Source: Candidatus Woesearchaeota archaeon
GTDB lineage: Archaea; Nanobdellota; Nanobdellia; Pacearchaeales; GW2011-AR1
Assembly: GCA_964385425.1 (NCBI GenBank)
Contig: CAYLOQ010000002.1
Location: 12,714-76,713, forward strand
Length of the DNA stretch: 64,000 nt
Direction: 5' to 3'
This document shows, one piece after another, positions 16,843-61,866 of this stretch. A program made the position numbers and the translations under genes. Position 1 is the stretch's first letter, and each line of letters opens with the position of its first letter. The notes under the pieces are model-generated. The model was not told where the DNA came from and did not search any database. It was given only the letters and a program-made list of their open reading frames with translations.

Positions 16843-17517
16843 ATGAAAAAGAGGTGTGCTGTTCTCTTCTCTGGCGGAAAAGATTCTACAATGGCTGCTT
16901 ATTTAGCCAAAAAGAAAGGTTATGAATTAACCTGTCTAATAACTCTTATCTCCAAGAACAAAGAAAGCTACATGTTTCACACACCATCAATCCGTAAAAC
17001 AAGACAACAGGCAAAAGTCATGAAAATCCCCTTGGTTGTTGATAAAACCAAGGGAGAAAAAGAAAAAGAGCTGAGAGACTTAGAAAGAGCGATAAAAATA
17101 GCTAAGAAAAAATATAAAATAAATTGTATAGTTACAGGAGCTCTTCATTCTGTTTATCAGGCATCCAGGATACAGAAAATATGTGATAAACTTGAACTTG
17201 AATGTTTTAATCCACTTTGGCATAAAGATGAGTTTACATATCTAGATGAGTTAATAAAGAATGGATTCAAGGTAATAATTATTGGGGTTTTTGCTTACCC
17301 ATTAAACGCTTCTTGGCTTGGGAGAAAGATAGACAAAGAATTTATAGAAGATGTGAAGGAACTTAAGGAAAAATATAAGATTCATGTGGCAGGAGAAGGT
17401 GGAGAATTCGAAACTTTTGTCCTTGATTGCCCTTTATTCGAGAGACCATTAAAAGTCACAGGAGCAGATTTTACCGGAGAAGATCATTCTTGGAGAATGG
17501 AAATTAAGGTGAGATGA
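16843..17517 (+). CDS. diphthine-ammonia ligase / PP-loop ATP pyrophosphatase (Dph6, MJ0570 family)
   Basis: SGGKDS PP-loop, EGGEFETFVLD C-terminal motif. Confidence 0.7.
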   Translation: MKKRCAVLFSGGKDSTMAAYLAKKKGYELTCLITLISKNKESYMFHTPSIRKTRQQAKVMKIPLVVDKTKGEKEKELRDLERAIKIAKKKYKINCIVTGALHSVYQASRIQKICDKLELECFNPLWHKDEFTYLDELIKNGFKVIIIGVFAYPLNASWLGRKIDKEFIEDVKELKEKYKIHVAGEGGEFETFVLDCPLFERPLKVTGADFTGEDHSWRMEIKVR

Positions 17518-17587
17518 AAGAACAGAAACAAAGAGATGATTTTGGGGTTTGGGGGTTGATACCTTGATAAAAGGATAAGTGCGGAGG

Positions 17588-17669
17588 CGCCCCAGCCGGG
17601 AATCGAACCCGGATGTCCGTCAAGACCTTGCTCTTAAGGCAAGCGCATTTCCAATTATGCTTCTAGGGC
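17588..17669 (-). tRNA. tRNA-Leu (anticodon TAA), long variable arm; embedded in a GC-rich leader/trailer helix (17581-17679)
   Basis: Acceptor GCCCTAG/CTGGGGC, D-arm GCAT-AATTGGAA-ATGC, anticodon stem CTTGC/GCAAG with loop CTTAAGA, T-arm CCGGG-TTCGATT-CCCGG. Flanks GCGGAGGC and GCCTCCGC pair with each other. Confidence 0.7.
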
Positions 17670-17964
17670 TGGCCTCCGCAAAAGATTGTAAACAGGAATA
17701 TTTATATAGTTATTTACACTAAAACTATTAATATCCGTCAAGATAATTCCAATTGTGCTTCTTTTTCTTTATTATTTATGTTGAAATGAACTTTGTTTAA
17801 GTAGCCCCCATTTAAACAATATTAATTCTTATGAATAATTTGTTCACAAATAATAGATAAAGTTATCCCAAGGGGTCACACACACCCCCCCATTTAGCGC
17901 ATTAGGATTGCTCTGGATGATTGGGGGTTGCAGACGGGGGTTTGGGGTTGTGGAAATTTGTAGA

Positions 17965-18366
17965 CTACATAACATCAAGAAAATCAGTCCCCTCATCTCT
18001 ATTTATCAATTTATGGGCGTGTTTCATTTCTTCAGGGTTATAGAGATGAATTATCTTGAACTTTCCAGAAGTTGTTTTGTTAATATTATCATGACGAACT
18101 TCAATAACATGAATAAGTCCCCAATAAATCCATTTGCCATCAATATTTTGAACTAAGAAATTACGAACAGGGGGTAATTGGTATATTCTGATTTTTGGTT
18201 TATCCTTGAACTCAAAAATCCTATTTTTAAAATTGTCAGCAGTAAAGGGCTTTATTTTATGCCTATCATAATCCAATTCTTTTGGAAAGCCCTGCTCAGT
18301 TGTTATTTGCAAGGTATCGTTTATTTCAATGAAACTACCCATAGGATTAACTATTAAAAGTACCAT
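17965..18366 (-). CDS. hypothetical protein (133 aa)
   Basis: ORF only; possible small beta-barrel (PUA/ASCH-like) but unsupported. Confidence 0.45.
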   Translation of the reverse strand: MVLLIVNPMGSFIEINDTLQITTEQGFPKELDYDRHKIKPFTADNFKNRIFEFKDKPKIRIYQLPPVRNFLVQNIDGKWIYWGLIHVIEVRHDNINKTTSGKFKIIHLYNPEEMKHAHKLINRDEGTDFLDVM

Positions 18367-18414
18367 ATAAAAATTATCATTATTTAGGACTACCCCGCTG
18401 ACTTAGTCTACATG

Positions 18415-18510
18415 ATGGGGGGAAGAATGGGTATTTAGGGGTTTTGATGGCGGATAATTTTATTGAGGGGGGTTTATAGCGCCCCGACCGTGCAACGACA
18501 GAGCGTCGGG
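18415..18510. repeat. G-rich intergenic module C (GGGTATTTAGGGGTTTTGATGGCGG ... CCCCGACCGTG hairpin CCCGAC-16nt-GTCGGG)
   Basis: Shares GGGGTTTTGA core with 18742-18770, 35583-35615, 22557-22585 and the 11-mer CCCCGACCGTG with 26747-26757. Confidence 0.6.
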
Positions 18511-18702
18511 TCAAAATTTTGAGATTCGACTTAAAACCACTACAAGAATCCACCCACTAATAAAGAATAGCAAACTCATCTGAAAAGCAGTATTTATAGT
18601 TATAGACTTCTCAACAAGAGTCATATTAAAAATAAATGCTACAGAAATCGCTACAAGAGTGGCTATAAATCCTTTTGTATATTCAATAAAAGTTGTTTTC
18701 AT
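18511..18702 (-). CDS. small membrane protein (63 aa)
   Basis: Two TM helices. Confidence 0.3.
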   Translation of the reverse strand: MKTTFIEYTKGFIATLVAISVAFIFNMTLVEKSITINTAFQMSLLFFISGWILVVVLSRISKF

Positions 18703-18736
18703 ATTTCCCTTAAGAATCGATTATTTATAAATAAAA

Positions 18737-18819
18737 GGGGTATTTTAGGGGTTTTGAGGGGGGTTTGGGAAAGCCCCCATCGGGCAGTCCAATAAACTAT
18801 GGAGTTTAGATGGGCTTTT
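18737..18819. repeat. G-rich intergenic module A (GGGGTATTTTAGGGGTTTTGAGGGGGGTTTGGG ... GAGTTTAGATGGGCTTTT)
   Basis: 18-mer 18802-18819 is the exact reverse complement of 26712-26729 (AAAAGCCCATCTAAACTC). Confidence 0.6.
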
Positions 18820-18870
18820 TAATCTTTTTAGAATAACAAAGAATTTAATACAAAAATACATGCTTTTATA

Positions 18871-21800
18871 ATGGTGAATGAAAAATCTGATAAGAAAAAA
18901 ATTGAGATTCATATCCCTAAAAATAGACTTGATTCAAAACAAGAGATGTTATATAAGTACTTATCAATAATTGGGTCTGAGATTGCATCATTCTATTTAG
19001 ATGCGTTAAATATTATTAAAAATAAAGAAATTGAAACAAAAAGTAATTTAGTGGCACATTTAGCTAGAGAAATAGATGGAGGGTTGAGAGATATTTTAGC
19101 AAGCAAATCTGTTTTAGATGAAAACAAATCTCTCTCAAAAGAAGAGAAAAAAGAACTAATTAATGAAATAAATTTAGAGTTAAGATCTAAGAATTTAACG
19201 GAATTGAAAAATATAAGTGGAACAATTATTTCTATCTGTAATGCATTAGACATAATTAAAGATAAAGAATTAATCAAAAAATGGTCTGTTGTTTCTGCAC
19301 AATTTCACAGATTTGCACATAGGAGTGGAGCATTTAAAGAAGCAAGAGATTTTAATTTGTTTAAGGACGTATGGGAAAGGTATGAAAAAATATTATCTCA
19401 CTTAATAGGATCCTCTCTTAATATGTTAAATAGGATAGATAATCTTATTTTGAAAGATAAACCCTCAAGTGAAATTATTAGAACATTACCCAATCTATTT
19501 AAAATTTCTACAAAAGAAAATTATTTTTTCTCAAATCTCAAACAAATAAACTGGCTAAAACCACTCAATGAAGCAGGATTTTTTAATCCCGAAGATAATC
19601 CTAAACCAAAGCTGACTGAAGACAAAAAGGGATATTATATTTTATCATGGAGCGTTTTAAGATATTTGGAATGGGTTTCAGAAAATCTTCCCCCAGATAA
19701 TGAAGGGGTTGTTAAAGAGTTAGTTAAAATAATTGACGCAATTATAAATTATAAAGATAAAGATGGAAAAAGAATTCAAAATTGGAGAACGGATTTTGCG
19801 ATATTTAAAATATTAAACAACATACCTTCAGATTATATTAAAAATGAACATATAGATTTTATTAAAGATTCATTAGAAATTAATTTTCATGGAGGATTAA
19901 TTGGATCAGAATTGAGTAAAGGTTTTCTTTCTAAATTAATAGCAGATAATAAAAAAGATTTGTTCTTAAGATTAGTTGAGGTTATTTGTTCCTATAGAAT
20001 CTTAGATTACAATCTTAATCCGCTTATTGAAGAATATTGGTTTTCTGAATTAATAAAAAAACATAAAACAGAACTAGCCAAATATTCTGCCAAAGAAATT
20101 ATCGAAAAGATTGTTGATGTAATAAAAGAGATTAAAAAAGGAGATCCTAATAGCTTTAATATTGTGCATATTCCAACAATAGAATCTCACGAGCAAAAAA
20201 GTTTCCCTGATAAGTATGAAGCACGATTAATAGATTTATTTGTAGAATGTTTTAGTTATTTGGATGACAAAATCTTGATTAAAGAAGTAAAAAAATTACT
20301 GGATCACGAATTTGATATTTTTAGGAGAGTTGGAATTTATTCAGTTAGTTTAAATTTTAATGTCCTGAACGAATTATTTTTTAGTCTTGATGACAATCCT
20401 CTTGAGAATGCAAGACTAAAGCATGAAATCTATGAATTATTTAAATCTCATGCAGATAAATTTTCTGAGAAACAAATTAAAATTATTATTAAATGGATTG
20501 AAGAAAAAAAGTATTATCTTGATGAAGTTAAACCTAAAGACAAAAAAAAGATTCTTGCTTATCATAAGAAGATATGGTACTTTGCTCTTTTATCTTCAAA
20601 GAATAAAGAAATAAAAAAGCTTTATGAGAAATATAATAAAATAAATGATATTGAACTTGAACATCCCGGATTTACAAGTTGGCATACTACTTGGACTGGA
20701 GAAGTTAGTCCCTTGCAAGAATTTGAACTTGCAAAAACTACAATTGACGAGATAATAGTAGAAATAAAAAAATTTAAGGAAGAAAAAGGATTTCAAAAAC
20801 CGAGCATTCGAGGATTTGCAGAAGCAATACAAAAAGATGTTGAAAAAAATCCCTCAAAGTATTATGATTCTCTTGAAAAATTTAAAGATATTGATTTGGC
20901 TTATCTGTGCACCATTGTTAGAGCATTCATAGATATATCTAGAAATAATAATCAAGCAAAAAAAGAGATTGCTAAATTGGATTGGGATAAAATTTTAAAA
21001 TTCATTGATAAACAGCTCAATAAATCTTTCTGGGAACTGGAATATTCGGGGGAATTTAATTATCGAGATTGGTTTATTTCAGAAGTTGCAAATTTAATTG
21101 AAGAAGGAACAAAACAAGATGAAACTGCATTTGATACTAAATTGCTACCGATAGCTAAAAAGATTTTATTAAACTTAACCCAACATACTATCTTTTATTC
21201 TATTGGCAATGAGGATTATGTGACTTTTGCTTTAAACTCAACAGAGGGCAAAATTCTCGATGCTATGCTTAACTATTCCTTAAGATTTTATAGGGTAGTG
21301 GAGAAAAAATGGGATGAAGAAATAAAGAAACACTTTACTAAAAGGATAACTGAAAAGAAATATCTTGAAGTATTTACAATCATTGGGCAATATTTGCCTC
21401 AATTTTATACTTTAGATAAGAAATGGATAGAATCTAATTTTGATTTAATTTTTCCATTAGATAATTTTGAGATATTGAAGGCATCGTCTTCAGGTTTATT
21501 CTTTAATCCAACAGTTTATAGTGATTTTTATACTATGTTTAAAGATAAGGGGCAATATAAATTATTCTTAGATTCATGGGAACAAAATGGGAACAAGATA
21601 AATGAAAGTGTATTAAGACATATTTGTTTAGGGTATGCTGAGAAATGGGAAGAAATAGAAGATGGTACTTTGATAAAAAAATTATTGGAGAAACCAGGGG
21701 CTTTAGGGGAGGTAATAAGATTCTTCTGGATAGCTTCAAAAAATATAAAGCCAGATTATGTTATAAGGATTAAAGAACTTTGGCAGTATATTTATGAAAA

Positions 21801-22176
21801 TAACAAAGAATTACAAATTACGGGGGAATTAATGCAATGGCTTAGAGTATTTGATGAATTGGATGACGATCTGTTTAAGTTGTGTATTGAGGGTGCTAAA
21901 TTTGTCAATACCCATGATGTGCATTATGTCATAGAGTATTTAGTAAAATATATTGATTCTGATGTTGAAAAAGCGGGAAAAATCCTTTTAGAATTAGTAG
22001 AAAATGTTGAAATAATCTCAGAATATAAAAAAGAGGATGTTATTAAAATAGTTGAAAAGTTATACCTTGAAGGAAAGAAAGACTTAGCAGATGAAATATG
22101 CAATAAATATTTTGATAAATATAGTTTTGAATTTTTAAGAGGGCTTTATAATGCGAATAATTCTAATGTAGAATAA
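18871..22176 (+). CDS. large hypothetical protein (1101 aa), K/E/I/N-rich, predicted alpha-helical repeat architecture
   Basis: Single uninterrupted 3.3-kb ORF; no catalytic motifs recognised. Confidence 0.7.
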   Translation: MVNEKSDKKKIEIHIPKNRLDSKQEMLYKYLSIIGSEIASFYLDALNIIKNKEIETKSNLVAHLAREIDGGLRDILASKSVLDENKSLSKEEKKELINEINLELRSKNLTELKNISGTIISICNALDIIKDKELIKKWSVVSAQFHRFAHRSGAFKEARDFNLFKDVWERYEKILSHLIGSSLNMLNRIDNLILKDKPSSEIIRTLPNLFKISTKENYFFSNLKQINWLKPLNEAGFFNPEDNPKPKLTEDKKGYYILSWSVLRYLEWVSENLPPDNEGVVKELVKIIDAIINYKDKDGKRIQNWRTDFAIFKILNNIPSDYIKNEHIDFIKDSLEINFHGGLIGSELSKGFLSKLIADNKKDLFLRLVEVICSYRILDYNLNPLIEEYWFSELIKKHKTELAKYSAKEIIEKIVDVIKEIKKGDPNSFNIVHIPTIESHEQKSFPDKYEARLIDLFVECFSYLDDKILIKEVKKLLDHEFDIFRRVGIYSVSLNFNVLNELFFSLDDNPLENARLKHEIYELFKSHADKFSEKQIKIIIKWIEEKKYYLDEVKPKDKKKILAYHKKIWYFALLSSKNKEIKKLYEKYNKINDIELEHPGFTSWHTTWTGEVSPLQEFELAKTTIDEIIVEIKKFKEEKGFQKPSIRGFAEAIQKDVEKNPSKYYDSLEKFKDIDLAYLCTIVRAFIDISRNNNQAKKEIAKLDWDKILKFIDKQLNKSFWELEYSGEFNYRDWFISEVANLIEEGTKQDETAFDTKLLPIAKKILLNLTQHTIFYSIGNEDYVTFALNSTEGKILDAMLNYSLRFYRVVEKKWDEEIKKHFTKRITEKKYLEVFTIIGQYLPQFYTLDKKWIESNFDLIFPLDNFEILKASSSGLFFNPTVYSDFYTMFKDKGQYKLFLDSWEQNGNKINESVLRHICLGYAEKWEEIEDGTLIKKLLEKPGALGEVIRFFWIASKNIKPDYVIRIKELWQYIYENNKELQITGELMQWLRVFDELDDDLFKLCIEGAKFVNTHDVHYVIEYLVKYIDSDVEKAGKILLELVENVEIISEYKKEDVIKIVEKLYLEGKKDLADEICNKYFDKYSFEFLRGLYNANNSNVE

Positions 22177-22222
22177 TAACTAATTTAATTCTTAACCAAG
22201 CTAAATAACTTATCGCCTCTTT

Positions 22223-22384
22223 TCATCTCTTCCTCAACCTTATCTCCCCCTTCTTAGCAACAGGTTCTAAATCATCTCCTTCTTTAAACCCTGCTTTTTC
22301 CATAAATTTTTTAGGGACTACCAACCTATATTTAAAGTATTCCTTATCCTTATACTCTCTCGATTTAACTTTCTCTACCTTCAT
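22223..22384 (-). CDS. AbrB/SpoVT-type (swapped-hairpin) DNA-binding protein, 53 aa
   Basis: Manual translation MKVEKVKSREYKDKEYFKYRLVVPKKFMEKAGFKEGDDLEPVAKKGEIRLRKR; the RLVVPKKF...GFKEGD segment is AbrB/MazE-like. Not in ORF track. Confidence 0.45.
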   Translation of the reverse strand: MKVEKVKSREYKDKEYFKYRLVVPKKFMEKAGFKEGDDLEPVAKKGEIRLRKR

Positions 22385-22664
22385 AAAAAGTAGATGTTAC
22401 CACTTCTTTATAAATATTAGGGGACGAAAGATTTATATAGTTTAGGGGACTAAAAGATATATGACCCTCTGCTACCACAAAGAATACTTCGCATTAGGAT
22501 TAATCAGTGCCTTGTTCATAACTGCCCTGATTGTCTTATTCGAGGATTTTATTGCTGAGATGGTTAAGAGAGTGAGGGGGTTTTAAGGGTTTTCTATCAA
22601 AGGTTCGAATTCATGTCTTAGCGTTTTTAATAGGGGTTATATATATCCCGAAAAAAGGCAACAC

Positions 22665-23945
22665 TTATTTATCTTTAGGATATTCATCTTCATGAAACCT
22701 CATTATTTTTGGATTAATAAAGATACTTAATTCTTTCTGTATTTTTTCCATCTCTTTTTGTTCATGTTCTCCCCAGTTTGGAATGTCTACTATGCAAAAA
22801 TCATATGAACAACTAGGTTTAATTTTCATTTCTGTGGCTATTCCTATAACCTTTCTGTTATCCTTATTCATTCCTCTAGCAACAAAACAAGTGCTCTTCA
22901 ATAATTCCCTTCTAAAATCTCGTGATTTCTTATTATCTAAAAACATAAAACAATAAGTTACTCCCCCAACTTCCATAACCCTACGGAACACATTATTTTT
23001 AATCTCATGGTGGGCTCTTACATGGGCATCAAAGAAAGACTTACCGAGAATCCTTCTTTCAAATCTATGGGGTTTAGCTAACTCTCTAGCAACCACTTCA
23101 TACCCCTTTCCGCTTGTATGAATTCTATTTATTATTTCATCCCAAATATAGCTTATTTTATCCTCTTCTTGTTTTTTAATATACTCTGGTCTTTTGCTTA
23201 AATGTTCCCATATTCCCTCATCCATGAATATTCCGTTATATTCTACAAATTTGTCAAAATTTCTTTCGTTTGTTATGTAATATGCTAACAAATCTTTTTC
23301 TCCACCCATCAATAACATTTGATTATCTAAAACAAAAAGTTTTTCTTTTTCTTTTACGTAATTGATAAAATCTTGGATAGTATCTAATTCATTTAAGATG
23401 GTTTCTAAAGCTTCTTTATTTAAAACATGTATTTTTTTATTTTTGAATTCTTTAAAAAAGGAAAAGAAATCCTCATCTTCTCCAACCAATGCCGAAATGA
23501 GATAAATTTCTTTTATTTTACGGGGGTCAAATTTTTCTTTTACCCTTCTAGGATTTTCTAAGATTATTTCTTTTTTTAAATCAAATAATCTTCTTTTTGC
23601 TCCAGAAAGCTGACTTAAATTTTTTTTGACTTCTCTTTCATTCTGTTTGCCGTCATTTCCTATCTTTAAATCTTTTATTTGCCAAATTATAGCAATTTCT
23701 CCAAATACAACTAAAAGGTCACATAATTCTTTTCCATCGGACCATTTTGGATTTCTATAACACCAGTCTATTAGAAAAGATTTTGTCGCCAATTCATAAA
23801 CTAGATCTTCGGCTTTTTCCCCTTTTAACTGAAAATAATTTTTAGAAGGTTTTTCTTGATAATCTGTTTCTTCTTTTTCTAAACAGCACTTCTTGTATTT
23901 TTTCCCGCCACCACAGGGGCAAGGTTGATTTCTACCAATTTTCAT
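22665..23945 (-). CDS. SEC-C motif protein with PD-(D/E)xK-like nuclease-like domain and unknown C-terminal domain
   Basis: N-terminal GRNQPCPCGGGKKYKKCC (SEC-C metal-binding motif); D..(x)..GEIAIIWQIK restriction-endonuclease-like core; 426 aa. Confidence 0.6.
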   Translation of the reverse strand: MKIGRNQPCPCGGGKKYKKCCLEKEETDYQEKPSKNYFQLKGEKAEDLVYELATKSFLIDWCYRNPKWSDGKELCDLLVVFGEIAIIWQIKDLKIGNDGKQNEREVKKNLSQLSGAKRRLFDLKKEIILENPRRVKEKFDPRKIKEIYLISALVGEDEDFFSFFKEFKNKKIHVLNKEALETILNELDTIQDFINYVKEKEKLFVLDNQMLLMGGEKDLLAYYITNERNFDKFVEYNGIFMDEGIWEHLSKRPEYIKKQEEDKISYIWDEIINRIHTSGKGYEVVARELAKPHRFERRILGKSFFDAHVRAHHEIKNNVFRRVMEVGGVTYCFMFLDNKKSRDFRRELLKSTCFVARGMNKDNRKVIGIATEMKIKPSCSYDFCIVDIPNWGEHEQKEMEKIQKELSIFINPKIMRFHEDEYPKDK

Positions 23946-24129
23946 AAAAGGCTTAAGATAAGAGCATTTTTACAGATTTCGTTTTTAGGTTAATCTTCTC
24001 CCCTTCCTTAATTTTCTTATTAATTTTTCTTTTTAAGAAATTGCAACAATTTCACAACATATTGCGGGGTTAAACCTATAATTGATATAAAAGATAATAT
24101 TTTTATATCAACATCTTCTTAATTATGGT

Positions 24130-25329
24130 ATGGGTAATAAGTTTATCTTAGTGGGATTAATTTTATTCATTTCATTAAATCTTGTTTCTGCAATAGACTT
24201 TAGTTTATCTGGAGTAGATGTGAATCCTTCAAATGTTTATCAAGGAGATTCCCCAACTTTAACAGCCAAGGTTACAGCAGATCCAAGTAATTTTTGTGAT
24301 ATTATCTGTACGTGGACTGTAGATGAAGGTCCTGACTATAGTGGGGTTGTTTCTGGAAGTAGTAATCCACCACAAACAATTCTCGCATCAGGAGAGAGTG
24401 AGACATTTCCTTTTAGAATAAATGCCCTTGGTCAAGGTAGTGTTTCTTATACTTTAACAGTTACATGTGATAATGAATATCCTCTATGTTTCGCTAGCCC
24501 AGTAATACAACTTTATTCTGATACATTAGTCTTTAATTATGCTGGAGATGGTAAATGTACTATATCAGAGGAAAAATGTGTTGATTATGGTTCTTATACC
24601 GGAACCAGTGATTGTTCTTGCTCTCCAATTAAAGAATGCAATCCTGACAGTTCAAGAGGAGCAGATGATTATGGGTGTGCAACTTATTGTGGTAATAACG
24701 TTAAAGAAACTGAATTTGAAACATGTTCTAATTGTCCATCTGACATTGGAAAGTGTGATGGATTAAGTTGTGTATCTAGTAGTGAGTGTGAAGGTAGTTT
24801 TTGCGTTCATGAAAAATGTTCAAGTAAACCTTACATAGAAGGAGATGGTTTTTGTGATTTAGAGGAAGGAGAAAATTGTAAGAATTCTGTAAGTGATTGT
24901 GCGTGTGGGAATAATGAAAGATGTGGAAATGCAGGTATATGTGAAACTTATTGTGGTAATAATATTTGTGAAGCTTCTGAAGAAGGTATTTGTAAATCAG
25001 ATTGTCAATGGTGTGGTGATGGACAATGTAGTGGAAATGAAAATTGTAAAAGCTGTCAAACAGATTGTGGGGTTTGTGAAAGTTCCGAAATAACTGGAGA
25101 AATATCTAGGAATATTCAAAGTGGAGTAGAAGAAAGTTTAAAGGGTGCTAGCAAAAGACAGAGAAATATTACCATTACTGCACTTGGATCAATTGTTTTA
25201 TTCATTGGGGGGTATGTTGTTTTTAAGTTTATGAAAGAAAAGAAATCTAAACCAAGTAAAACAAAAAAAAACAGCAGTAAAAAAAGAAATACAAAGAAGA
25301 AGACAACTAAGAAGAAAGGGAGGAAGTAA
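24130..25329 (+). CDS. secreted, C-terminally membrane-anchored cysteine-rich repeat protein (Myxococcus-type CGDG/CGNN repeats)
   Basis: Signal/TM at N-term, repeated YCGNN...C..C..DC / WCGDGQC modules, C-terminal TM helix plus K-rich tail. Confidence 0.65.
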   Translation: MGNKFILVGLILFISLNLVSAIDFSLSGVDVNPSNVYQGDSPTLTAKVTADPSNFCDIICTWTVDEGPDYSGVVSGSSNPPQTILASGESETFPFRINALGQGSVSYTLTVTCDNEYPLCFASPVIQLYSDTLVFNYAGDGKCTISEEKCVDYGSYTGTSDCSCSPIKECNPDSSRGADDYGCATYCGNNVKETEFETCSNCPSDIGKCDGLSCVSSSECEGSFCVHEKCSSKPYIEGDGFCDLEEGENCKNSVSDCACGNNERCGNAGICETYCGNNICEASEEGICKSDCQWCGDGQCSGNENCKSCQTDCGVCESSEITGEISRNIQSGVEESLKGASKRQRNITITALGSIVLFIGGYVVFKFMKEKKSKPSKTKKNSSKKRNTKKKTTKKKGRK

Positions 25330-25331
25330 TA

Positions 25332-26699
25332 ATGAAATTTTCTGAAAAAGAAATTATTGTGGGTGTTATTTTTTTAATAATTTTCGTTGCGTTATCAGTT
25401 AATTTATTTTGGGCAAATCCTTCAAATGTTAATTTTTGTGGGGATGGGGTGTGTGTAAATAATGAAATAGGTGCATGTAGTATAGATTGTGATTGGTGTG
25501 GAGATGGTTATTGTCAAGAGGGAGAATCTTGTAGCAGTTGCAAAGAGGATTGTAATTCATGTTCATCAGAATTTTTTTGTGGGGATGGTGTCTGTAGTGT
25601 TGGTGAATGTAATTCTGGATGTTGGAAAGATTGCGGTTTTTTAGAATGTGAAAATGGAATATGTGAATTAGAAAAAGGGGAGAGTTGTATTAATTCTCCT
25701 AATGATTGTAGATGTATTGATGGATATTGCGATTCTGAATCTGGACAATGTATTTATCAAAGTTGTGGTAATGGTGTTTGCGATGTAGATGAAACATATC
25801 TTAACTGCCCTAATGATTGTAAAGAAATTTATGAAGTAGAAGATACTTCTGATATTAACTACCCAATTATTCTTGTTCATGGACATTCTGCAACAAGTTC
25901 AAGTAGTGAAAACTCAATTAATACATTTAAAGAATTTCAAGAAAAACTAGATTCCGAAGGATATGCTGATAGTAAAGGAATAGTTTTACCTAAGGATATG
26001 GATATTGCTGAAGGTTCGTGGGGAAAAACCCGCAAACCAATTGTAGTTAGGACAACTTATTATTTGAATGCTTATGATGAATTTGGTTCTACTATAGGTC
26101 CAGAAGATAATCAACATATAAATACATATGCTAAAAGATTATCGGGTGTGGTTTATTCTGTTTTGAAATATACTGAAAAAAATAAAGTGATAATTATAGC
26201 TCATTCAATGGGGGGACTAGTATCTAGAGAATATGTAAAAAACGAAGGGGGATTAAATAAAGTAGATAAGTTAGTGACCATAGGAACTCCAAATCATGGG
26301 ATTTATGCAGATATTTCTACAAATTGTGAAGGGGTTTTTGGGAGAACAGAAAATAGTCCAGAATGTGAAGATATGAGGGTGGATAGTGTGTTTATTACAC
26401 AACTTAACCAACAAGAAACTTTTACAAATATAGATTATATGACAATAACAGGTAAAGCTACAAATGAAAAAGTAGATTACGGTTATCTTATCGGTTCTAT
26501 ATTTCCCTATTCTGTTTGTGATGGTGGGGAGTATCATGATGAGGTTGTGTGTGTATCAAGTGTATTTCTTAATGGTGCAATTAATAAAATAGTCAATGGA
26601 CAAGAAGTTTCTGGAAAAGGAACATTTCACGGGGATATGACTGAGCCATCAAGAGTTCCAGAAGTTTATGATTATGTTGTGGATTTTTTAGATCTTTAA
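25332..26699 (+). CDS. secreted lipase/esterase (alpha/beta hydrolase, PGAP1/LCAT-like) with N-terminal cysteine-rich repeats
   Basis: FCGDGVC / WCGDGYC repeats, then ILVHGHS oxyanion region and AHSMGG nucleophile elbow. Confidence 0.7.
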   Translation: MKFSEKEIIVGVIFLIIFVALSVNLFWANPSNVNFCGDGVCVNNEIGACSIDCDWCGDGYCQEGESCSSCKEDCNSCSSEFFCGDGVCSVGECNSGCWKDCGFLECENGICELEKGESCINSPNDCRCIDGYCDSESGQCIYQSCGNGVCDVDETYLNCPNDCKEIYEVEDTSDINYPIILVHGHSATSSSSENSINTFKEFQEKLDSEGYADSKGIVLPKDMDIAEGSWGKTRKPIVVRTTYYLNAYDEFGSTIGPEDNQHINTYAKRLSGVVYSVLKYTEKNKVIIIAHSMGGLVSREYVKNEGGLNKVDKLVTIGTPNHGIYADISTNCEGVFGRTENSPECEDMRVDSVFITQLNQQETFTNIDYMTITGKATNEKVDYGYLIGSIFPYSVCDGGEYHDEVVCVSSVFLNGAINKIVNGQEVSGKGTFHGDMTEPSRVPEVYDYVVDFLDL

Positions 26700-26711
26700 C
26701 AATTTCTACTC

Positions 26712-26775
26712 AAAAGCCCATCTAAACTCTACAAAAAATATTAACACCCCGACCGTGTTCTGGGGGTATTGAGTT
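26712..26775. repeat. intergenic module G sharing AAAAGCCCATCTAAACTC and CCCCGACCGTG..TGGGGGTATT with modules A/C
   Basis: Exact 18-mer and 11-mer matches to 18.4-18.8 kb; CCCCGA..TGGGGG hairpin between convergent genes. Confidence 0.6.
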
Positions 26776-26786
26776 AATAAAATTCT

Positions 26787-26999
26787 TCACAACACCTGCA
26801 TCTCTTGATTTTGAAGTACAGAATTTCTTAAGATTTTTCTCTGATTAATCTGTTCAATTGACCATTTAATACCACACCAACGGCAATTAGAAATACCTCT
26901 ACTTTTCTTTTTACATAAAGGACAAGGTACTGATATAGTTCTTAACATACCTTCTGTCCATTTTTTTTCACATAATTCTCTAGGTTTTACCTTAACCAT
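26787..26999 (-). CDS. small zinc-ribbon protein (70 aa)
   Basis: CPLCKK...CRWCG. Confidence 0.35.
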   Translation of the reverse strand: MVKVKPRELCEKKWTEGMLRTISVPCPLCKKKSRGISNCRWCGIKWSIEQINQRKILRNSVLQNQEMQVL

Positions 27000-27113
27000 A
27001 TTACTTAAAACTCATCTTTCTTTTTATATTCTTACCTTTTCAACAATCCCCAATAAAATCCCCAAGAATCATACAATTTTATAGTTTTCTAAAACTTTAG
27101 TTTTGCACAATAA

Positions 27114-28028
27114 CTACTCCCTAGCCCAACCAATATTTTTAGTAAAAACTTTTATTATTCCAGGGCTGCAATCAGCATTTTTGTCTTTTCCAGGTTTTAA
27201 ATCTAAAATTTGCTCACAACTACAACCATAAACTATTTGTTCTCCTTCTGTGTCTAGGCATTTGTCTTCGTCATCTGGAATTCCATCATTATCTTCATCG
27301 ATTTCATTTAAATTCACACCATCTCCATTATTCCAAAGTTGGGTCACTTCTTCTTGAGTTAGTGCTCTGTTCCAAATCCCAAACTCATCCACTAAACCAG
27401 GATAATAGTCTGCAAAATTTCCATTAAAAAAACGAGTTCCAATAGTTAAATCCATATTATTAACAATAGTTGTTCCTATCTGATCCTTTTCATCAACTTT
27501 ATTTCCATTTAAATATAATTTTTGCTTACTACCGTCATAAGTAAGAACGACATGATTCCATTGATTTTTAGCCCAACCATTATAAACAGAAAATTGCCTT
27601 CCATTTTCTGTCCAGCTATCTCCAGTAAGTAAAACATCTGTGAGATAAATTCTATAAGAAATATCATCATTTACAGGCCAATATGCATTATATCCCTTGT
27701 TAATAATATATCCTTCATCCTCTGTTAAGGAATTTGCTTTAAACCAGATACTTAAAGTAAACTCATTTAAATCTAAACTATCATCATCGTTAATCTCTAC
27801 ATAATCATTAATACCATCAAAACTTAATGCCTTACCTATTTTTCCATCAACAAAAGTTGCCCCATAATTTGTTCCATCGTTTCCATTTATAGGGTCTTCC
27901 ACATCGTTTTCAAAATTATAATAACTAACTAATCCTGTATTCAAACTTTCTGGCCAGCTTGCTAATACTATGGCAATTGAAGATACTACTATCAAAAACA
28001 CAAACAAAAATATATTTATTTTTTTCAT
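27114..28028 (-). CDS. secreted concanavalin-A-like lectin/LamG-domain protein
   Basis: Signal peptide; DGINDYVEI...SIWFKA jellyroll signature; C-terminal Asp-rich region. Confidence 0.65.
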   Translation of the reverse strand: MKKINIFLFVFLIVVSSIAIVLASWPESLNTGLVSYYNFENDVEDPINGNDGTNYGATFVDGKIGKALSFDGINDYVEINDDDSLDLNEFTLSIWFKANSLTEDEGYIINKGYNAYWPVNDDISYRIYLTDVLLTGDSWTENGRQFSVYNGWAKNQWNHVVLTYDGSKQKLYLNGNKVDEKDQIGTTIVNNMDLTIGTRFFNGNFADYYPGLVDEFGIWNRALTQEEVTQLWNNGDGVNLNEIDEDNDGIPDDEDKCLDTEGEQIVYGCSCEQILDLKPGKDKNADCSPGIIKVFTKNIGWARE

Positions 28029-28059
28029 AATATTTTATGTTTTTGGAATATTTAAAAGT

Positions 28060-30042
28060 TTACCCCCTCCTCCGCAAGCCAACAGTAACAATCAAAATAA
28101 TAAGAACAATAATTCCTACAAATAACAACCAAGGAACAAACAAAGGTATTATGTCTTCCCCATCTTTCTCTATTTTTTGGGGTGTCTTCTCCAATATTAA
28201 GTCTTTCTCTTCTATTTTTAGTGGTTCTTTCGCTTCTATTTTCACAATTTCTTTATTTAGGAATATTGTTTCCATTTGGATTGGTTCTCTTTCCAGAACA
28301 GAAATAGTTTCCTCTCTTTCATCATCTTCACCATCAAAAATAGCTTTTATCACAAGAGTATAATTTCCTTTTTTCGCATTTCCAGGAATCTTAATAGAAA
28401 TAGTTTCTGAATAAAAATCATCTTCACCAAATTCTTCTAGTTCAAAAGTTTCACTCTCTGTCAAAACACCGAGTTCTTTTATTTCAACAACCACATAAAC
28501 ATCCTCATCACTTTCTCCAATATTTTGTACCTCTGTAAAAACATCAAAACTCTTTCCAGCAATAATAGATAATGGGTTTATTGAAAAATCTTCGATAATA
28601 ACTTCGTGTTTTTCTCTTTCTAAATCAATACTAATCGCGCCTTCAACACACTGTGATCCCTCATCACCTTTTTCATAAGCTTTTACAAAAACAAGATAGG
28701 CATCGTCTTCGAAGTCATCAGGAACTTCGAGAATCAAATCAAATTTTTTATCATCATTATCTTTAATTTTCTTATCATCATCGATATTTTGTATTTCGTC
28801 GTCCTCATCAATATTGTATAAGGATGCTTCAACAATTATTTTCTTATCATCATCAGCGTTGTTCTTAACCTCAACCTTCACTTCTATTTCTTCTCCCGGC
28901 CCAAATTCATCGCCTTCATCAGGATCTTTTAACTCTAAATCCAAATCTCCGACAACCCCTGATTTACAGGTGTCTAAGTCATCAAACAAGCTTAAATTAT
29001 GTTTGATTCCACTTTCTCCCGTTTTAAATGAAGAAAAGTGATCAACTTTGAAAACAATTTCACCGTTTGTCGTAGGGTGTGGAGTAGATTCTAAAATATT
29101 ACAGAAATCACATTTTTGGTTTATTGAATTAGGGATTGTCGTAAATCCCTCTGTGAAAAAGATTTCGGGAATTGTATTATATCTTAACCCACTTAAGGTA
29201 ATTATTGCCGGTTTGTCTAGTTGAGGATAAAATGAACTATCTATGGCAACAATCCCTCTTTTTATTTTAACCCTGCTATTCAAATCAGTAACTCCAGATA
29301 AATTTAAACCTTCTAAAAACTCTATTTTTCCTTTTCCTGTTTTTTCAAGAACCACACCTTCCACATTATCTAACTCATCTAAATCTAAAGAATCAAAATC
29401 AGTGGTAGCACCGTCAAAATTCTCTGTTTCAGGTCTTTCTATAATGATTTCCCATTCTTTTGAAACAGTAAGAAATCCGTCGTTGGCAATAGCTGTAATG
29501 TTGTGTTTCCCCTTATCGCTGTTGTTAACTTCATATGAAAAAGAGCTTTCACTTGTATTTGTTATATTAAGAACACTTTTCCCATCTAAAAACCATGAAT
29601 GATTAACAATATCCATGTAACCAGTTGTCGTTGATATATCAAAACTTATATTTTGGGTTTTAGTTACAGTTATGATTTCTGTTTCAGGATTGTGATTAGT
29701 AACATTCAACGCATCCCCTGTCAAAGCAGACAAATTCAGATTAATATCCTGGGGAGAAATACAATCTATTTTTTGTTCAGCTTCAGAATTATTAATGGTT
29801 ATGTCAATCCCATCAAAGCATTCTTCAAACTGGATTAATACAGGCCCATATTTACTTTCATTATCCACACTCGCATTAGCAATTTCTGTTCCATTTATTG
29901 AAAAATTAACAGGCGTTCCTTCAGCAGCAATTCTACCATCTATTTTCACATCACCCTGAAAAATAAGAAACTGGGGAATTGATGCAACTACAGAAATGCT
30001 AATTAATAAAATTCCAAATATTATCAGTGATTTTTTGTCCAT
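28060..30042 (-). CDS. acidic cell-surface protein (660 aa) with many N-glycosylation sequons and C-terminal TM anchor
   Basis: N-terminal signal, Ig-like beta-rich repeats, C-terminal PWLLFVGIIVLIILIVTVGLRRRG anchor. Confidence 0.65.
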   Translation of the reverse strand: MDKKSLIIFGILLISISVVASIPQFLIFQGDVKIDGRIAAEGTPVNFSINGTEIANASVDNESKYGPVLIQFEECFDGIDITINNSEAEQKIDCISPQDINLNLSALTGDALNVTNHNPETEIITVTKTQNISFDISTTTGYMDIVNHSWFLDGKSVLNITNTSESSFSYEVNNSDKGKHNITAIANDGFLTVSKEWEIIIERPETENFDGATTDFDSLDLDELDNVEGVVLEKTGKGKIEFLEGLNLSGVTDLNSRVKIKRGIVAIDSSFYPQLDKPAIITLSGLRYNTIPEIFFTEGFTTIPNSINQKCDFCNILESTPHPTTNGEIVFKVDHFSSFKTGESGIKHNLSLFDDLDTCKSGVVGDLDLELKDPDEGDEFGPGEEIEVKVEVKNNADDDKKIIVEASLYNIDEDDEIQNIDDDKKIKDNDDKKFDLILEVPDDFEDDAYLVFVKAYEKGDEGSQCVEGAISIDLEREKHEVIIEDFSINPLSIIAGKSFDVFTEVQNIGESDEDVYVVVEIKELGVLTESETFELEEFGEDDFYSETISIKIPGNAKKGNYTLVIKAIFDGEDDEREETISVLEREPIQMETIFLNKEIVKIEAKEPLKIEEKDLILEKTPQKIEKDGEDIIPLFVPWLLFVGIIVLIILIVTVGLRRRG

Positions 30043-30713
30043 TTTCGGGGTTTAAATTTAATTAACACCACCCCTGCTCCCAAAATCACCAGAACGGTAA
30101 TTACTATAATGCCTTTCCCAGAACCTAAAAAACCAATAGCAGCGCCCGTTATCCCAGATCTTATTGCTCCCTGCTCTTCTATTTCCTGACTCTCTTCTTG
30201 CACTACTTCTTCTCCAGAACTTGAACCAGATCCACTTGTTTCTGTTGTTGGCGGGCTAATGAATCCTCCTCCGCCTCCAGAACTACCAGAAGAACCGCCA
30301 CCTCCACCACCGCCTCCAGAAGAGCCTGAAGAGCTAGGAGGACTAGGAGGTGTTATGATTACGGATAAATCCATGAAAATGGTCTTGCCTCCTTGTCTTG
30401 TAGGTGTTATTGAAGTTCCTGCTATCTCATCAAGAATTTTAAATTCAATTGAATCACTAGATTCACCTGTTGCCACATATAAGTCGTACTCCCCTGCCTC
30501 TGTGACATTATAAACAGATTCCAGCACAGAATCAACATAGATACTTATCTGTATTCCTACTACAGCGTTTTGTCCGTCAATAGTCACATTTCCTATGAAA
30601 TGGTCTGGTAAAGGAGGGATAGGGGGCAAGGCATAAACCAGACTAATAAAGAAAACACTCAAAAAGATTAAAACTATTTCTTTTTTCGCTTTAATATTAA
30701 TTTTCTTTTCCAT
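30024..30713 (-). CDS. surface protein with Gly/Ser linker and C-terminal TM anchor
   Basis: Signal peptide, PSPPSSSGSSGGGGGGGG linker, C-terminal TM plus basic tail. Confidence 0.55.
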   Translation of the reverse strand: MEKKINIKAKKEIVLIFLSVFFISLVYALPPIPPLPDHFIGNVTIDGQNAVVGIQISIYVDSVLESVYNVTEAGEYDLYVATGESSDSIEFKILDEIAGTSITPTRQGGKTIFMDLSVIITPPSPPSSSGSSGGGGGGGGSSGSSGGGGGFISPPTTETSGSGSSSGEEVVQEESQEIEEQGAIRSGITGAAIGFLGSGKGIIVITVLVILGAGVVLIKFKPRKWTKNH

Positions 30714-31093
30714 GTTAAGAGTCCTGCAGCCAAGATTATTAAGGCTGCTCCAAGGTAATAAACGAGGTATGATTTTTCAATTTTTAAACTTAATTGTTCA
30801 AAACCACTGCTTTCGTAAGATATACTTTCATTAGCAGAAATTCCGTCGACATAAAACTCCACTTCCTGCCCTGCTTCAAGTTTCTGCAGCAGAATAGTAA
30901 ACTTTCCTCTCTCATTCACTTCTGAACTCGCAAACTCTTCGCCATCCAAAAGAGCAGTTATTTCTGTTCCAACCTTTGCAGGATTTTCATTAATATAAAC
31001 ATCACCAGAAACAATCATTGGAAGTTCTGGAACTGCAAGAATAAAACCGGAACTTATTATTAAAATTAATAAACCTAAGGGAAAAATTTTCAT
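30674..31093 (-). CDS. small secreted C-terminally anchored protein
   Basis: Signal peptide plus C-terminal TM/KRKKK. Confidence 0.5.
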   Translation of the reverse strand: MKIFPLGLLILIISSGFILAVPELPMIVSGDVYINENPAKVGTEITALLDGEEFASSEVNERGKFTILLQKLEAGQEVEFYVDGISANESISYESSGFEQLSLKIEKSYLVYYLGAALIILAAGLLTWKRKLILKRKKK

Positions 31094-31094
31094 T

Positions 31095-34000
31095 TTACTT
31101 AAAGATGTAAACCCAATAACCTTCTCCAGGGTTCATTAAATTTGAGGTAACCATAAGTTCAAATTTGTCTAGAGATTCATCATATCTTATTACAGAGAAG
31201 ACAGGTAGGGGCTCGTCAAAGATTGAGCTAAATGCACTACTGACATTCATTTCCTCTGTTGAAGTCAGTCCGATTAAATTCCATCCTCCTTCCAAGGCGT
31301 CAATATTGATTTTTCCAGAAGGAAGGCAGAAAGGTCCCGTACAATCTCCAGAATAATCTAATCCCAAAATTGTTAATGTAGCATTATCAACCCAATACCC
31401 TATTCCAGGTTCTATTGTTACAGGTCTAGCCCACACATTTCCGTTATATTCCCAGACAGCATTGATTGGTAACAATGTATTTGTAACATTTTCAACTAGG
31501 GTCTTTGGAACAGAAACCAGATTCCACGATGAATCAAGTTCCCAGATTAAGTCGTTTACTGTTATTGTAAATGTTGAACTTGTTTGTGTTTTTCCTGCAT
31601 TATCTTCCGCCGTGATATGGTAATCTACTGTTCCTTTTTCAGTTGAAGCAAGAATTGTGAAGGTATATGAATCTCCACTTATAACAGGCGTATTATCTGT
31701 TCCTCCAACTCCATCAACAGTATAATGAAGTGTTGCACTTGCAACCCCGCTTCCACTATCTATTATGGTAGCTGTTATCTCTGTAGAATCTCCAACAACT
31801 CTTTTTGTTATTGTTTGTGTGTGAGTTATTTCTGGAGGAGTTGTATCAAGAGTTATATCATCTGAAAACTGGTCAACATTTCCTGCATCATCTCTAACTT
31901 CAAGGTAAACTGTTTTACTTCCGTCACCTGCTGTTAATACCCGTGTTTTTGATGTTGTACAAGCTTCCCATGAACTCCAGGTGCTTGCATCATTACTAAA
32001 CCTACATTCTAATTCAGTGTCTAAATTATCAGCGAATGTTAAACCCAATTCAATATTTGCATTACCTGTATATAGTGCTCCACCTTCTATTGAGACAGAA
32101 CCTGTTGGGTCTGTGAAATCTATATTGAATGTTCTTGAAACTTCTGTTCCTTCATTTCCAGAATTATCTTCTGTTTTAATAAATACTTCACAAATATTGG
32201 TTCCTTCATCTCGACAATTCGATCCACTTCCAACCGTTATTAATCTTGAAATAATTTCATTATTTCCACTACAAGAACCTGCACTCTTGTAAAATTCTGT
32301 GATTGTTCCATTACTTACAACCTTATATTTACATTCACCATCAGCTAATCCTGCTCCCCCTGTATCAGAATATTCAAGTTCAGCATTAAAATCAGAATTC
32401 TGCCAAGAACTTTCTGCAGGAGAATTTACTGTTGATGTCGGTGCATCATGATCTGTGTTAACACCTGCGTCATAAGCCCAAGGAGTAAAATCAACATCTC
32501 CAACTAACTGATCACTTGGGTCTAAATCTCCCCACCAGTTATCTTCTGCATCAAGAACATAACTTCCTGATGTTTTTAAAATACTTACAGATTTGAGTCC
32601 ATATGCTCCAGGTATTCCTACTAACTTGTTAAGATTAATTCTATTTCCAAGCCCAAAATTGGAATCTGTAAGAGTATCATCAGGATCAGCTCCACCAACA
32701 TTTGTATCAAAGAATGCTACTCCATAATTGTTTGTAGAGTCAACATCGTTATTTGTGAAAACGAAATCAGATAAAATTCCTGAAGGAGCAGATGCATCCT
32801 GTGTCCAAACATACGCAACCCCGTCTGTATCTCTAAAAGTGTTATCGTTAATCAATATATCTATTAAATTGGAATTTTGTAAATTAATTGGTATTGAACC
32901 TTTGTTTACTGTGTTACGCTTAAAGTCTAAACTTTCAACTTCAGTATTTAGGGGAAATCCAAAACTTCCACCAATCTTCCAAGGATTTGAAATCATGTTT
33001 GTTGGTCCATTGAAGACATTGTCGTTCATGACTATATTGGAAACTTTGTTGGTTGGCGTTCCTCCACCAATCCAAACACCAATAGAAGGATCAGTTGTTA
33101 AATCAAATACGGAATTTAAAATTTGTACATTATTAATAGCAGATGATGAAGAATCAATTGTGATTGCAACCCCACTAGAAGGGTTGAAAGTAAATCCATC
33201 TAATGTGACATCGCTTGAAGTTATTGTATGAGTACCGTTAATTATAGCTTCACTATTTTCCTGTAATGTTACTTTTTTATTAATAGTTAAACTTTCTTCA
33301 TATTCTCCAGAATAAATATTAATTATAGCTTCCGAAGATGCTGCATTTATGCTTGGCTGAATTCCTCCATAAAACTCCCCCGTTCCATCCACTTCTGCAA
33401 CATGGAAGAAATCATCTATATTATTTGTGAAAGTATTTCCACTTAGAGTAGCTGTTCCAGTAGTTCTCTCAAACACAAGCCCCCTCACATTATCATGAAT
33501 ATTATTGTTTGTCATAACTGCACTTGAACTGTCTGTTGTTGAAAAAACAGATGTTATAACAATAGCAGAATCACTATCATAGATTTCGTTATCGTGAATA
33601 TTTGCATGCGAATCGGCTTCGCTACTATCCCAAGCAAAGGAACTCACAAATATGCCTGGAGAGTCCCATGTAGGGGGCCAATCAGTACTTAAGGCATTAT
33701 GTAATTCGTTTCCATAAATTTCTACATTAGAACCGTCAAAAACATTAACTAAATTTTGAACTCTACTTGTTCCATCAACATTATCTCCCACAACTTCGTT
33801 ATCATAGAAAATTCCATCAGAATTGAGATATCTAATACCTCTTTTTTGGAATGAAGAGATTGTGTTGTTGTTTATGTCTGAATTGGTTGAATCGTCAACT
33901 TGAATCCCATTTCCTTGATTTTTCCAAACATTCTTTACATCAGAATTTTTAATTTCCACATTATCAGTACTTGAAAGCCATATCCCATAATCAAATACAT

Positions 34001-35471: not shown

Positions 35472-35787
35472 TAAAAGAAAACCCTATTTAAATATTTTTA
35501 TATTCGAAGGATTATATCTAAGTGGGTGCTTTCTGTCATCCCTTTTAATTGATGAATCAATATTTATCCTATCTCCTATTAATATAAGGGGGTTTTAGGG
35601 GTTTGTGATGGTGACTTTATTTGAAGATGTTATTTCAGGGTGAATTGGGAAGACTAGGGGAATTAGTGATACTCTGACCACAGAAGAGTACCCATTAGAA
35701 TGTTTAGAATTTCATCCCTTTATCGAATCCCAATGATTGTCGGGAAGTACGCTTGGAACATGGGAGATTTTTATTGAGATGCTTTAT

Positions 35788-36075
35788 TTAATTATTGCGA
35801 CGATGACCTATTTTAACAAACACTTCCATAAATACCCACGCAACCAAAAATAAGAGCGCCCATAAACTATATCCCCATATAAGATTATATAATATTAACA
35901 AAACTATTGCTCCCCAAAAAATAAAGATAAAAATCCATTTTAGAACCCATACTAGACCAGTAGAGAAGTTATATTTATAATTTTCTTCATTAAAAATTGC
36001 ATTAAAAATACCATAGATAAATACGCCTATTCTAGGTAATATTCCATCATCTCCAAAAGCATATTTTTCTACCAT
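35788..36075 (-). CDS. small membrane protein (95 aa)
   Basis: Two or three TM helices, Trp-rich. Confidence 0.4.
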   Translation of the reverse strand: MVEKYAFGDDGILPRIGVFIYGIFNAIFNEENYKYNFSTGLVWVLKWIFIFIFWGAIVLLILYNLIWGYSLWALLFLVAWVFMEVFVKIGHRRNN

Positions 36076-36144
36076 TTTATCTTTAAGTTTCTGTTGTTTT
36101 TATAGATTTCGGGACTATTAAAAAAGATTGGAACACTCATCTTA

Positions 36145-61730: not shown

Positions 61731-61866
61731 GGTCCTATAGTCCAGTGGTTAAGACACCTCGTTTACACGCAGAAGAACCAAGTTTCTTCCGTACCATCTC
61801 CTTTTCGTGGAGAAGCGGAAACTGCTAAAAGCCGAGGAAACAGCAGTTCGATTCTGCTTAGGACCA
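61731..61866 (+). tRNA. tRNA-Val (anticodon TAC) with about 64-nt intron at canonical 37/38 position
   Basis: Acceptor GGTCCTA/TAGGACC, anticodon stem CCTCG/CGAGG, loop TTTACA|intron|C, T-arm AGCAG-TTCGATT-CTGCT. Confidence 0.75.

Follow-up and report, generated by a model that had tools for sequence, protein, structure and literature searches.

Short G-rich direct repeats at small-gene borders in a variable island of a DPANN archaeon: possible cassette-junction sites

Recurring sites between small genes in described systems

We begin by considering a family of short G-rich sequences, here called modules, in a 64,000-nucleotide stretch of DNA (the window) that is part of a 505-kb scaffold of the metagenome-assembled genome ENA ERZ23499938. 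The source organism is a Nanoarchaeota/Pacearchaeota-like DPANN archaeon, as indicated by its diphthamide synthase gene, by tRNAs read as intron-containing and by best protein matches that bear the names Nanoarchaeota or Pacearchaeota. We tentatively read the modules as junction or recombination repeats, similar to att or pdif sites, in a variable island of the cassette type, a reading that is possible but falls short of probable. DPANN archaea have tiny genomes in which gene gain and loss are poorly understood, and the locus offers a concrete, testable case. If recombination does occur at the modules, they would be a new kind of cassette site beside integrons and Xer-site modules; otherwise, they are still a useful marker of a variable region.

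The closest described arrangements include the cassette arrays of integrons and the clusters of attC sites lacking integron-integrases (CALINs), which are recognized as two or more sites less than 4 kb apart that separate short open reading frames (ORFs) mostly in one orientation, and which have been reported in Nanoarchaeota (PMC9668308). At the present locus, four modules within 1.3 kb separate a tRNA-Leu gene, a 125-aa ORF and a 63-aa ORF, all on the minus strand. The two arrangements have in common that short genes are split by recurring sites of one orientation and that the cassette content varies among related genomes; in CALINs, as in the island, the integrase need not adjoin the sites. 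The sites themselves, however, are different. An attC site, 55-140 nt long, is an imperfect palindrome with a single-strand fold and has the cores R'' (RYYYAAC) and R' (GTTRRRY) at its two ends, whereas the modules are not imperfect palindromes, have no such cores in or at the edges of any copy, and form no stable single-strand hairpin (z-scores of the three region folds: +1.76, -1.50 and -0.74, none significant). The genes here, in addition, do not share a single orientation toward the site. Complete integrons have an IntI tyrosine recombinase beside the array; none was found here, and Phage_integrase had no match in the scanned ORFs (most island ORFs, some of those in the remaining window and the gene table of L001). 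Being non-palindromic, without the RYYYAAC and GTTRRRY cores and without an IntI in the scanned ORFs, the modules are therefore not of the integron family.

A second comparison is with the pdif sites of Acinetobacter plasmids. These 28-bp sites, dyads of a XerC and a XerD arm whose orientation alternates, bracket small gene modules, including toxin-antitoxin genes, and the flanking DNA can be unrelated between replicons. Like pdif sites, the modules are short conserved sites that bracket small gene units with unrelated DNA on either side; unlike them, they are asymmetric G-tract direct repeats. A third comparison is with islands of the tRNA-associated or tycheposon type (bioRxiv 10.1101/2020.12.28.424599), which the locus resembles in that an island lies beside a tRNA in a streamlined genome, direct repeats lie between cargo segments, a partial tRNA copy is found nearby, and a second, tRNA-flanked single-gene insertion is present at 61.7-62.8 kb. 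The differences are that the G modules are not tRNA-derived, that no integrase was found, and that the corresponding site in relatives consists of two overlapping convergent genes and not of a tRNA. An integrative element targeting the tRNA-Leu gene itself, which should carry an integrase gene and repeat the 3' part of the tRNA directly at its far end, was rejected, the nearby fragment not being a copy of the tRNA 3' end and the scanned ORFs including no integrase.

As short, multi-copy, intergenic and genome-specific sequences, the modules are also comparable to repetitive extragenic palindromes and bacterial interspersed mosaic elements (REP/BIME) and to miniature inverted-repeat transposable elements (MITEs). 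In contrast to these, they lack dyad symmetry, terminal inverted repeats and target duplications, and they occur in very few copies in one island. The initial annotation had offered a miniature mobile element as one explanation; an explanation of the mobile or recombination type does fit best, but a MITE or other non-autonomous transposon does not, the modules being asymmetric direct repeats without terminal inverted repeats or target duplication. A replication origin was also considered. Origin recognition boxes (ORB) are dyads with a G-string, placed as inverted copies around an AT-rich unwinding element and usually beside orc1/cdc6. The modules do not qualify: the copies are all direct, there is no ORB-type dyad, and the scanned ORFs include no Orc1/Cdc6 domain. 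By analogy, the arrangement would work most like integron cassette arrays, pdif modules and the tandem att repeats of tRNA islands.

The modules, their island and a second contig

The module family is small and local, with three robust copies and three weak ones:

17544..17560, plus strand: weak module GGGGTTTGGGGGTTGAT, 27 nt in from the left island edge, immediately 3' of the tRNA-Leu gene; profile E 40
17936-17953, plus strand: weak module within the 456-bp segment 17930-18385
18417..18451, plus strand: robust module GGGGGGAAGAATGGGTATTTAGGGGTTTTGATGGC; nhmmer E 1e-6; 34 nt at 97% identity to 1307-1340 of metagenome contig L246
18733..18770, plus strand: robust module with the canonical G-quadruplex (G4) motif; nhmmer E 0.004; abuts a TATA-like box of the 63-aa ORF
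22574..22594, plus strand: weak module GAGGGGGTTTTAAGGGTTTTC; nhmmer E 1.1; at the end of a 41-codon ORF
35584..35614, plus strand: robust module; nhmmer E 0.0046; within the island about 530 nt from its right edge

The G-rich sequences that the initial annotation had listed are present (TTTTGGGGTTTGGGGGTTGATACC at 17541-17565, GGGGGTTGCAGACGGGGGTTTGGGGTTGTGG at 17918-17952, GGGGTATTTTAGGGGTTTTGAGGGGGGTTTGGG at 18737-18770, and those at 18415-18480 and 35587-35615), save for the copy that it placed at 22557-22585, whose real position is 22574-22594. Its background of 25-30% GC is too low for the window, which has 33.9%. With up to one mismatch, GGGGTTTTRRGGG has five matches in the window where 0.35 are expected, and clusters of at least three runs of three or more G number nine against an expected 2.9, three of them within 850 bp on the plus strand. 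With a profile of the best five copies, two of them from L246 and three from the window, nhmmer finds only three sites in the window at E<0.01 (18421-18452, 18733-18761 and 35584-35614); its matches at 22575 (E 1.1) and 17535 (E 40) are marginal. In the alignment, the core common to all six copies is only 25-35 nt long. The two best copies share TAGGGGTTTTGA and TTGAGGGGGGTTT, which a 19-nt insertion separates in one of them, and an 11-mer of the 17544 module recurs at 17937-17947. The same profile has no match in the searched loci of related genomes. The dispersal that had been supposed is thus not borne out in the window and the loci searched: three copies pass the threshold in the window, none appears in the relatives' searched loci, and all six lie in one island. 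The modules are nevertheless a repeat family and not chance low complexity; L246, a second contig, has two copies, one of them 97% identical over 34 nt with unrelated flanks.

The confinement of all copies to a strain-specific island was missed in the initial annotation, as was the nature of the 1101-aa gene, which matches Dsr1. The island is as follows:

17518..36144, no strand assigned: variable island of 18.6 kb between the diphthamide synthase and His-tRNA synthetase genes, without counterpart in close relatives

In the window, the diphthamide synthase gene ends at 17517 and the His-tRNA synthetase gene at 36145. In the closest relatives found, whose diphthamide synthases are 88% (L009-L011) and 82% (L012-L013) identical, five contigs of two relatives have these two genes convergent and overlapping, with the island absent. 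Since both junction sequences of the relatives' type are kept in the window, 18.6 kb apart in the alignment, and the gene order beyond the His-tRNA synthetase gene is roughly collinear with that of the relatives, 17518-36144 is a strain-specific island. Its 19-24 kb part has 26-31% GC, lower than the flanks. All six modules lie within it on the plus strand, in four consecutive intergenic gaps at the left end, at one place near the right end and, in the case of 22574, internally.

We turn our attention to the second contig. When JGI metagenome contigs were scanned with the family core, a single match was obtained, L246 (1450 bp). The alignments of this contig with the window, and the features of the left end of the island that they concern, are:

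L246 710-753 with window 17886-17929: 91% identity
L246 759-820 with window 18386-18446: 89% identity
L246 1307-1340 with window 18418-18451: 34 nt at 97% identity, the sequence to either side being unrelated
17930..18385, minus strand: 456-bp segment without counterpart in L246 (blastn and alignment), with a weak module, the 125-aa gene and its promoter
17965-18342, minus strand: 125-aa gene, within the 456-bp segment
18511..18702, minus strand: 63-aa hydrophobic ORF, bracketed by two robust modules and called as a gene in L134 and L252
17586..17669, minus strand: tRNA-Leu(UAA) gene (ARAGORN and Rfam)

L246 has three ORFs, for which neither the window nor the relatives' loci offer a homologue: one for a Cys-rich secreted protein, one for a 145-aa acetyltransferase-like protein (called GNAT by its look only) and one further ORF. 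Its two module copies bracket the GNAT gene, one upstream of it and the other, the copy of 97% identity, between it and another gene, and the GNAT gene is oriented opposite to the minus-strand small genes of the window. As L246 joins 17886-17929 directly to 18386-18446, it is without the 456-bp unit. The repeats are thus confined to an island that the relatives lack, and they recur between unrelated genes in a contig that differs by one cassette. The 34 nt at 97% identity with unrelated flanks point to copying, not convergence. Because the same module lies between unrelated genes and the 456-bp segment is absent, the modules would mark the junctions of exchangeable small-gene cassettes.

In the arrangement that we propose, the modules would be short direct repeats, in one orientation, between independently exchangeable small gene units, among them the tRNA-Leu gene, the 125-aa gene, the 63-aa ORF and a block beginning with the Dsr1-like gene. 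They would be the sites, or the scars, of recombination through which the units were gained and lost, and this recombination would occur at the modules via some recombinase or via short homology. The working analogy would be the att sites that tandem integration leaves, or the pdif sites around Acinetobacter plasmid modules. Such junction repeats account for the single orientation, the position at unit borders, the confinement to the island and the sharp-edged 97% identity in a foreign context. In their favor are also the single-gene insertion with direct repeats at 61.7-62.8 kb of the same genome, the repeat of a tRNA end in DPANN contig L135, and the island-typical cargo of a Dsr1-like protein, an AbrB/MazE-like protein and surface proteins. 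A further point in their favor comes from the source sample, in which the ends of two Logan contigs, at 17850 and 17879, overlap by exactly 30 nt and adjoin the start of the L246 homology. This fits an assembly-graph branch from strain variants if the k-mer size is as assumed, and it suggests that co-existing variants differ to the left of a hairpin (hairpin A, listed below).

Several results weigh against the junction repeats. Only three copies are statistically robust in the window, and only one contig outside the source genome was found to have the module. The junction of the 125-aa indel has no clean duplicated core, its borders (17930-18385) show neither terminal inverted repeats nor a target duplication, and a plain microhomology deletion would also explain it. 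The branch point in the Logan assemblies is the left edge of hairpin A and not a G module. The modules do not travel with the Dsr1-like gene (homologue loci L241-L245 are without them) or with the 125-aa gene (L003, L005, L135, L247 and L249-L250 likewise). A scan of GTDB genomes with WTTTAGGGGTTTTGAKGG gave 105 single matches, the listed ones from scattered taxa; by our own estimate this number is about the chance expectation, and the source genome is not among the matches listed. Neither an integrase nor another recombinase of the island was found among the scanned ORFs. Because no island recombinase was found, the indel has no clean core, outside contigs number one and GTDB gave only single matches, we keep the account of the junctions conditional. 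A viral origin was considered and rejected; a scan of IMG/VR with a loose pattern gave at least 120 single matches and was treated as uninformative. No plasmid or phage similarity was found for 17518-18870.

A more specific form of the proposal, which we regard as quite unlikely, is a DPANN (Nanoarchaeota-type) cassette-shuffling system with asymmetric, hairpin-less G-tract sites of about 35 nt and a recombinase encoded elsewhere, moving single-gene units. Such a system would move defence genes and the 125-aa gene common to Patescibacteria and DPANN archaea and, if real, would be a concrete route for gene flux between these ultrasmall organisms.

The weakness of half of the copies also bears on the alternative that the modules are inert remnants, that is, decaying duplicated intergenic DNA or functionless G4T4-like tracts made by slippage in a region of fast turnover. 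The short 25-35 nt common to the copies, the decayed tRNA fragment and mosaic of short words in the region, and the failure to find a structure signal or a known family agree with this. A sharp-bordered identity of 97% over 34 nt in another gene context, however, needs recent transfer or selection, and the copies are all on one strand and at gene-unit borders, not at random positions. We consider inert remnants an unlikely explanation.

Regulation, RNA and G-quadruplexes

The spacing of the G runs and the neighborhood of promoters raise the question of whether the modules are cis-regulatory sites for a transcription factor or nucleoid protein that travel with the island promoters. The starts of the G runs are 11, 10 and 9 nt apart in 18737-18769 and 10 nt apart in 35588-35601, and a phasing of about 10-11 bp would put contacts on one face of the helix. 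TATA-like boxes abut the 18733-18770 copy (that of the 63-aa ORF) and copy 1 of L246 (that of the GNAT gene), the 35584 copy is about 120 nt upstream of the 1458-aa surface-protein gene and beside a TATA-like word, and an AbrB-like regulator is encoded in the island. The distance from module to start codon, however, ranges from about 35 to about 190 nt, copies 17544 and 17936 are downstream of genes, the orientation toward the regulated gene varies, and 34 nt at 97% identity with unrelated flanks exceeds a typical binding site. A regulatory role is, on this evidence, rather unlikely.

The initial annotation had also drawn attention to shared words and hairpins beside the modules. These flanking features are:

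17884..17929, plus strand: GC-clamped hairpin A (C7...G5) in the centroid fold, kept in L246 (710-753 against 17886-17929, 91%)
18386..18416, plus strand: segment X (GGACTACCCCGCTGACTTAGTCTAC...), next to a module, conserved in L246 and single-copy in the window
18463..18508, plus strand: the word TTGAGGGGGGTTT and GC hairpins including CCCCGACCGTG, with a 13-mer in common with 18754-18766 and an 11-mer in common with 26747
18774..18819, plus strand: C5/G3 hairpin, then the 18-mer GAGTTTAGATGGGCTTTT; left arm of an inverted pair
26712..26766, minus strand: the 18-mer and the CCCCGACCGTG...GGGGG hairpin; right arm of the inverted pair

As had been reported, 26712-26729 holds the exact reverse complement of the 18-mer at 18802-18819, which is unlikely to be a chance match (E 7e-6 in the intergenic comparison). 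The 11-mer CCCCGACCGTG does occur at both 18482 and 26747, but with E 0.11 it is near chance and not significant alone. The 18-mer, segment X and hairpin A each had 0 viral matches.

Two suggestions, a terminator cassette and a structured small RNA gene, can be considered together. A terminator is taken here as a run of at least five T that closely follows a gene on its coding strand, whether or not a hairpin is present. The T runs within modules are 3-4 nt long, the modules read C/A-rich for the minus-strand genes and so have the wrong orientation, and a scan of 17400-19000 found no terminator-like site; the terminator was rejected. Small RNA genes or transcript elements, or unidirectional blocks to antisense transcription, are the other form of this idea, the candidate being a plus-strand RNA of 60-85 nt between the TATA-like box at 18722-18733 and the T5 at 18816-18820, with two hairpins in it. 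The fold of 18720-18835 does consist of two hairpins and then T5, hairpin A is conserved in L246, and G4-prone sequences are reported in PMC7565180 as over-represented in archaeal non-coding RNA. Set against this are the fold z-scores given above, the lack of compensatory base changes, and Rfam 15, in which (with gathering and E-value thresholds) only tRNA-Leu reached threshold, all others having at most 25 bits against thresholds of 42 or more. The second 18-mer site does not preserve the hairpin that contains the 18-mer, and the short T runs and the empty scan apply here as well. A structured RNA was thus rejected, and an RNA role in the wider sense seems very doubtful.

The G4 potential that had been suggested for the modules holds in silico only, where it is high. 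The sequence criterion (four tracts of three or more G joined by loops 1-7 nt long, or at least 1.5 in G4Hunter) describes propensity only. The segment 18737-18769 is a canonical (G3+ N1-7)x3 G3+ motif, the one copy with four such tracts. The window's highest three G4Hunter values (2.24, 2.0 and 2.0) fall on the module sites 17915-17961, 18414-18444 and 18735-18774, the scores of five modules being 2.24, 2.0, 2.0, 1.68 and 1.56, and 16 segments of the window reach at least 1.5 where 3.8 are expected. With archaeal putative G4 sequences (PMC7565180), the modules share a high G4Hunter score and a non-coding location; G4 propensity alone leaves the conserved non-G positions and the location at cassette junctions unexplained.

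That G4 formation is itself the function, for instance in stalling replication or transcription or in stimulating recombination at the island borders, has in its favor the canonical motif and the coincidence of the top three scores with modules. Four tracts are, however, present in one copy only, and the conserved non-G positions of the 34-nt core (GAAGAAT, TATTTA, GATGGC) are not needed by a bare G4. This explanation, which overlaps the others without excluding them, we regard as highly improbable in its own right.

Cargo of the island and tRNA-linked repeats

To the right of the modules at the left end, the island carries the following genes, given without strand except for the first:

18871..22176, plus strand: 1101-aa Dsr1-like gene (PADLOC Dsr1 profile)
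22223-22384: AbrB/MazE-like 53-aa gene
22665-23945: SEC-C protein gene
24130-25329: Cys-rich 399-aa protein gene
25332-26699: lipase gene
27114-28028: Laminin-G protein gene
31095-35471: 1458-aa beta-helix surface-protein gene

The 1101-aa protein, earlier taken for an orphan, matches the Dsr1 defence profile of PADLOC with E 5.9e-216 over profile positions 265-1225 of 1227, and its re-annotation as Dsr1-like is a practical gain whatever the role of the modules. The match does not include the first 156 residues, which may stand in for the N-terminal (SIR2) part of the profile. A homologue of 55% identity (P0247 in L244) has type I restriction-modification genes on either side and a GmrSD gene upstream.

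Homologues or clusters of the 125-aa gene at 70-82% identity number more than 1800 in Patescibacteria and DPANN archaea, and this cross-domain conservation of sequence suggests frequent transfer. The protein has no sequence match in Pfam, NCBIfam, PADLOC or PDB, and its AlphaFold model (pLDDT 83.5) gives weak PUA-like matches only (SRA, EVE and YTH, E of at least 0.07). The 63-aa ORF was found by exact look-up in the same sample only.

Around the 125-aa gene of other DPANN genomes, repeats were observed at L249 100-320 and 685-870, at L247 2100-2420 and 2780-3100, and at L003 3400-4560. Short inverted repeats lie right at the start and stop of the gene, such as GCAATTTAAAC and GTTTAAATTGC. Farther away are genome-specific, GC-rich repeats of about 100 nt with GCCTAAC...GTTAGGC words that resemble the R'' and R' cores of integrons; by their sequence, these may be attC-like sites. 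In DPANN contig L135, a tRNA precedes the 125-aa gene, and a 12-nt repeat of the tRNA end comes after the gene.

The tRNAs of the window have Rfam matches that span 133-136 nt and are read as intron-containing. Beside the intact tRNA-Leu gene, at a distance of about 65 nt, is the fragment mentioned above:

17733..17765, minus strand: tRNA-Leu-like fragment with D-loop and variable-arm words and without the anticodon arm (read from the sequence)

The fragment has a 16-nt match at 94% to 17649-17664, and it copies the D-loop and variable-arm words, not the tRNA 3' end.

The other tRNA-linked insertion of the window comprises 61731-62832. Here a LigT/2H-phosphoesterase gene (61916-62533, minus strand) comes after a tRNA gene that has a presumed intron (61731-61866), and a near-identical 101-nt repeat of the 3' part of that tRNA flanks the LigT-like gene, 61760-61860 being equal to 62726-62826. 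The repeat is of the kind that a tRNA-targeting element has, and the region carries the signature of a single-gene insertion at a tRNA.

A transposase gene lies outside the island, and relatives carry other genes there:

38521-39444, minus strand: IS240/Mutator-like DDE transposase gene, 2.4 kb past the right edge of the island

A link between it and the modules was rejected; the flanks and an inverted-repeat search around 38521-39444 show no G-module-like sequence. Elsewhere in the window, a 337-aa ORF with a LAGLIDADG domain (5107-6120, plus strand) is directly upstream of an 861-aa Lhr-like helicase gene, and tandem 51-nt repeats at 59346-59690 lie inside a 694-aa protein kinase gene (58771-60855, minus strand).

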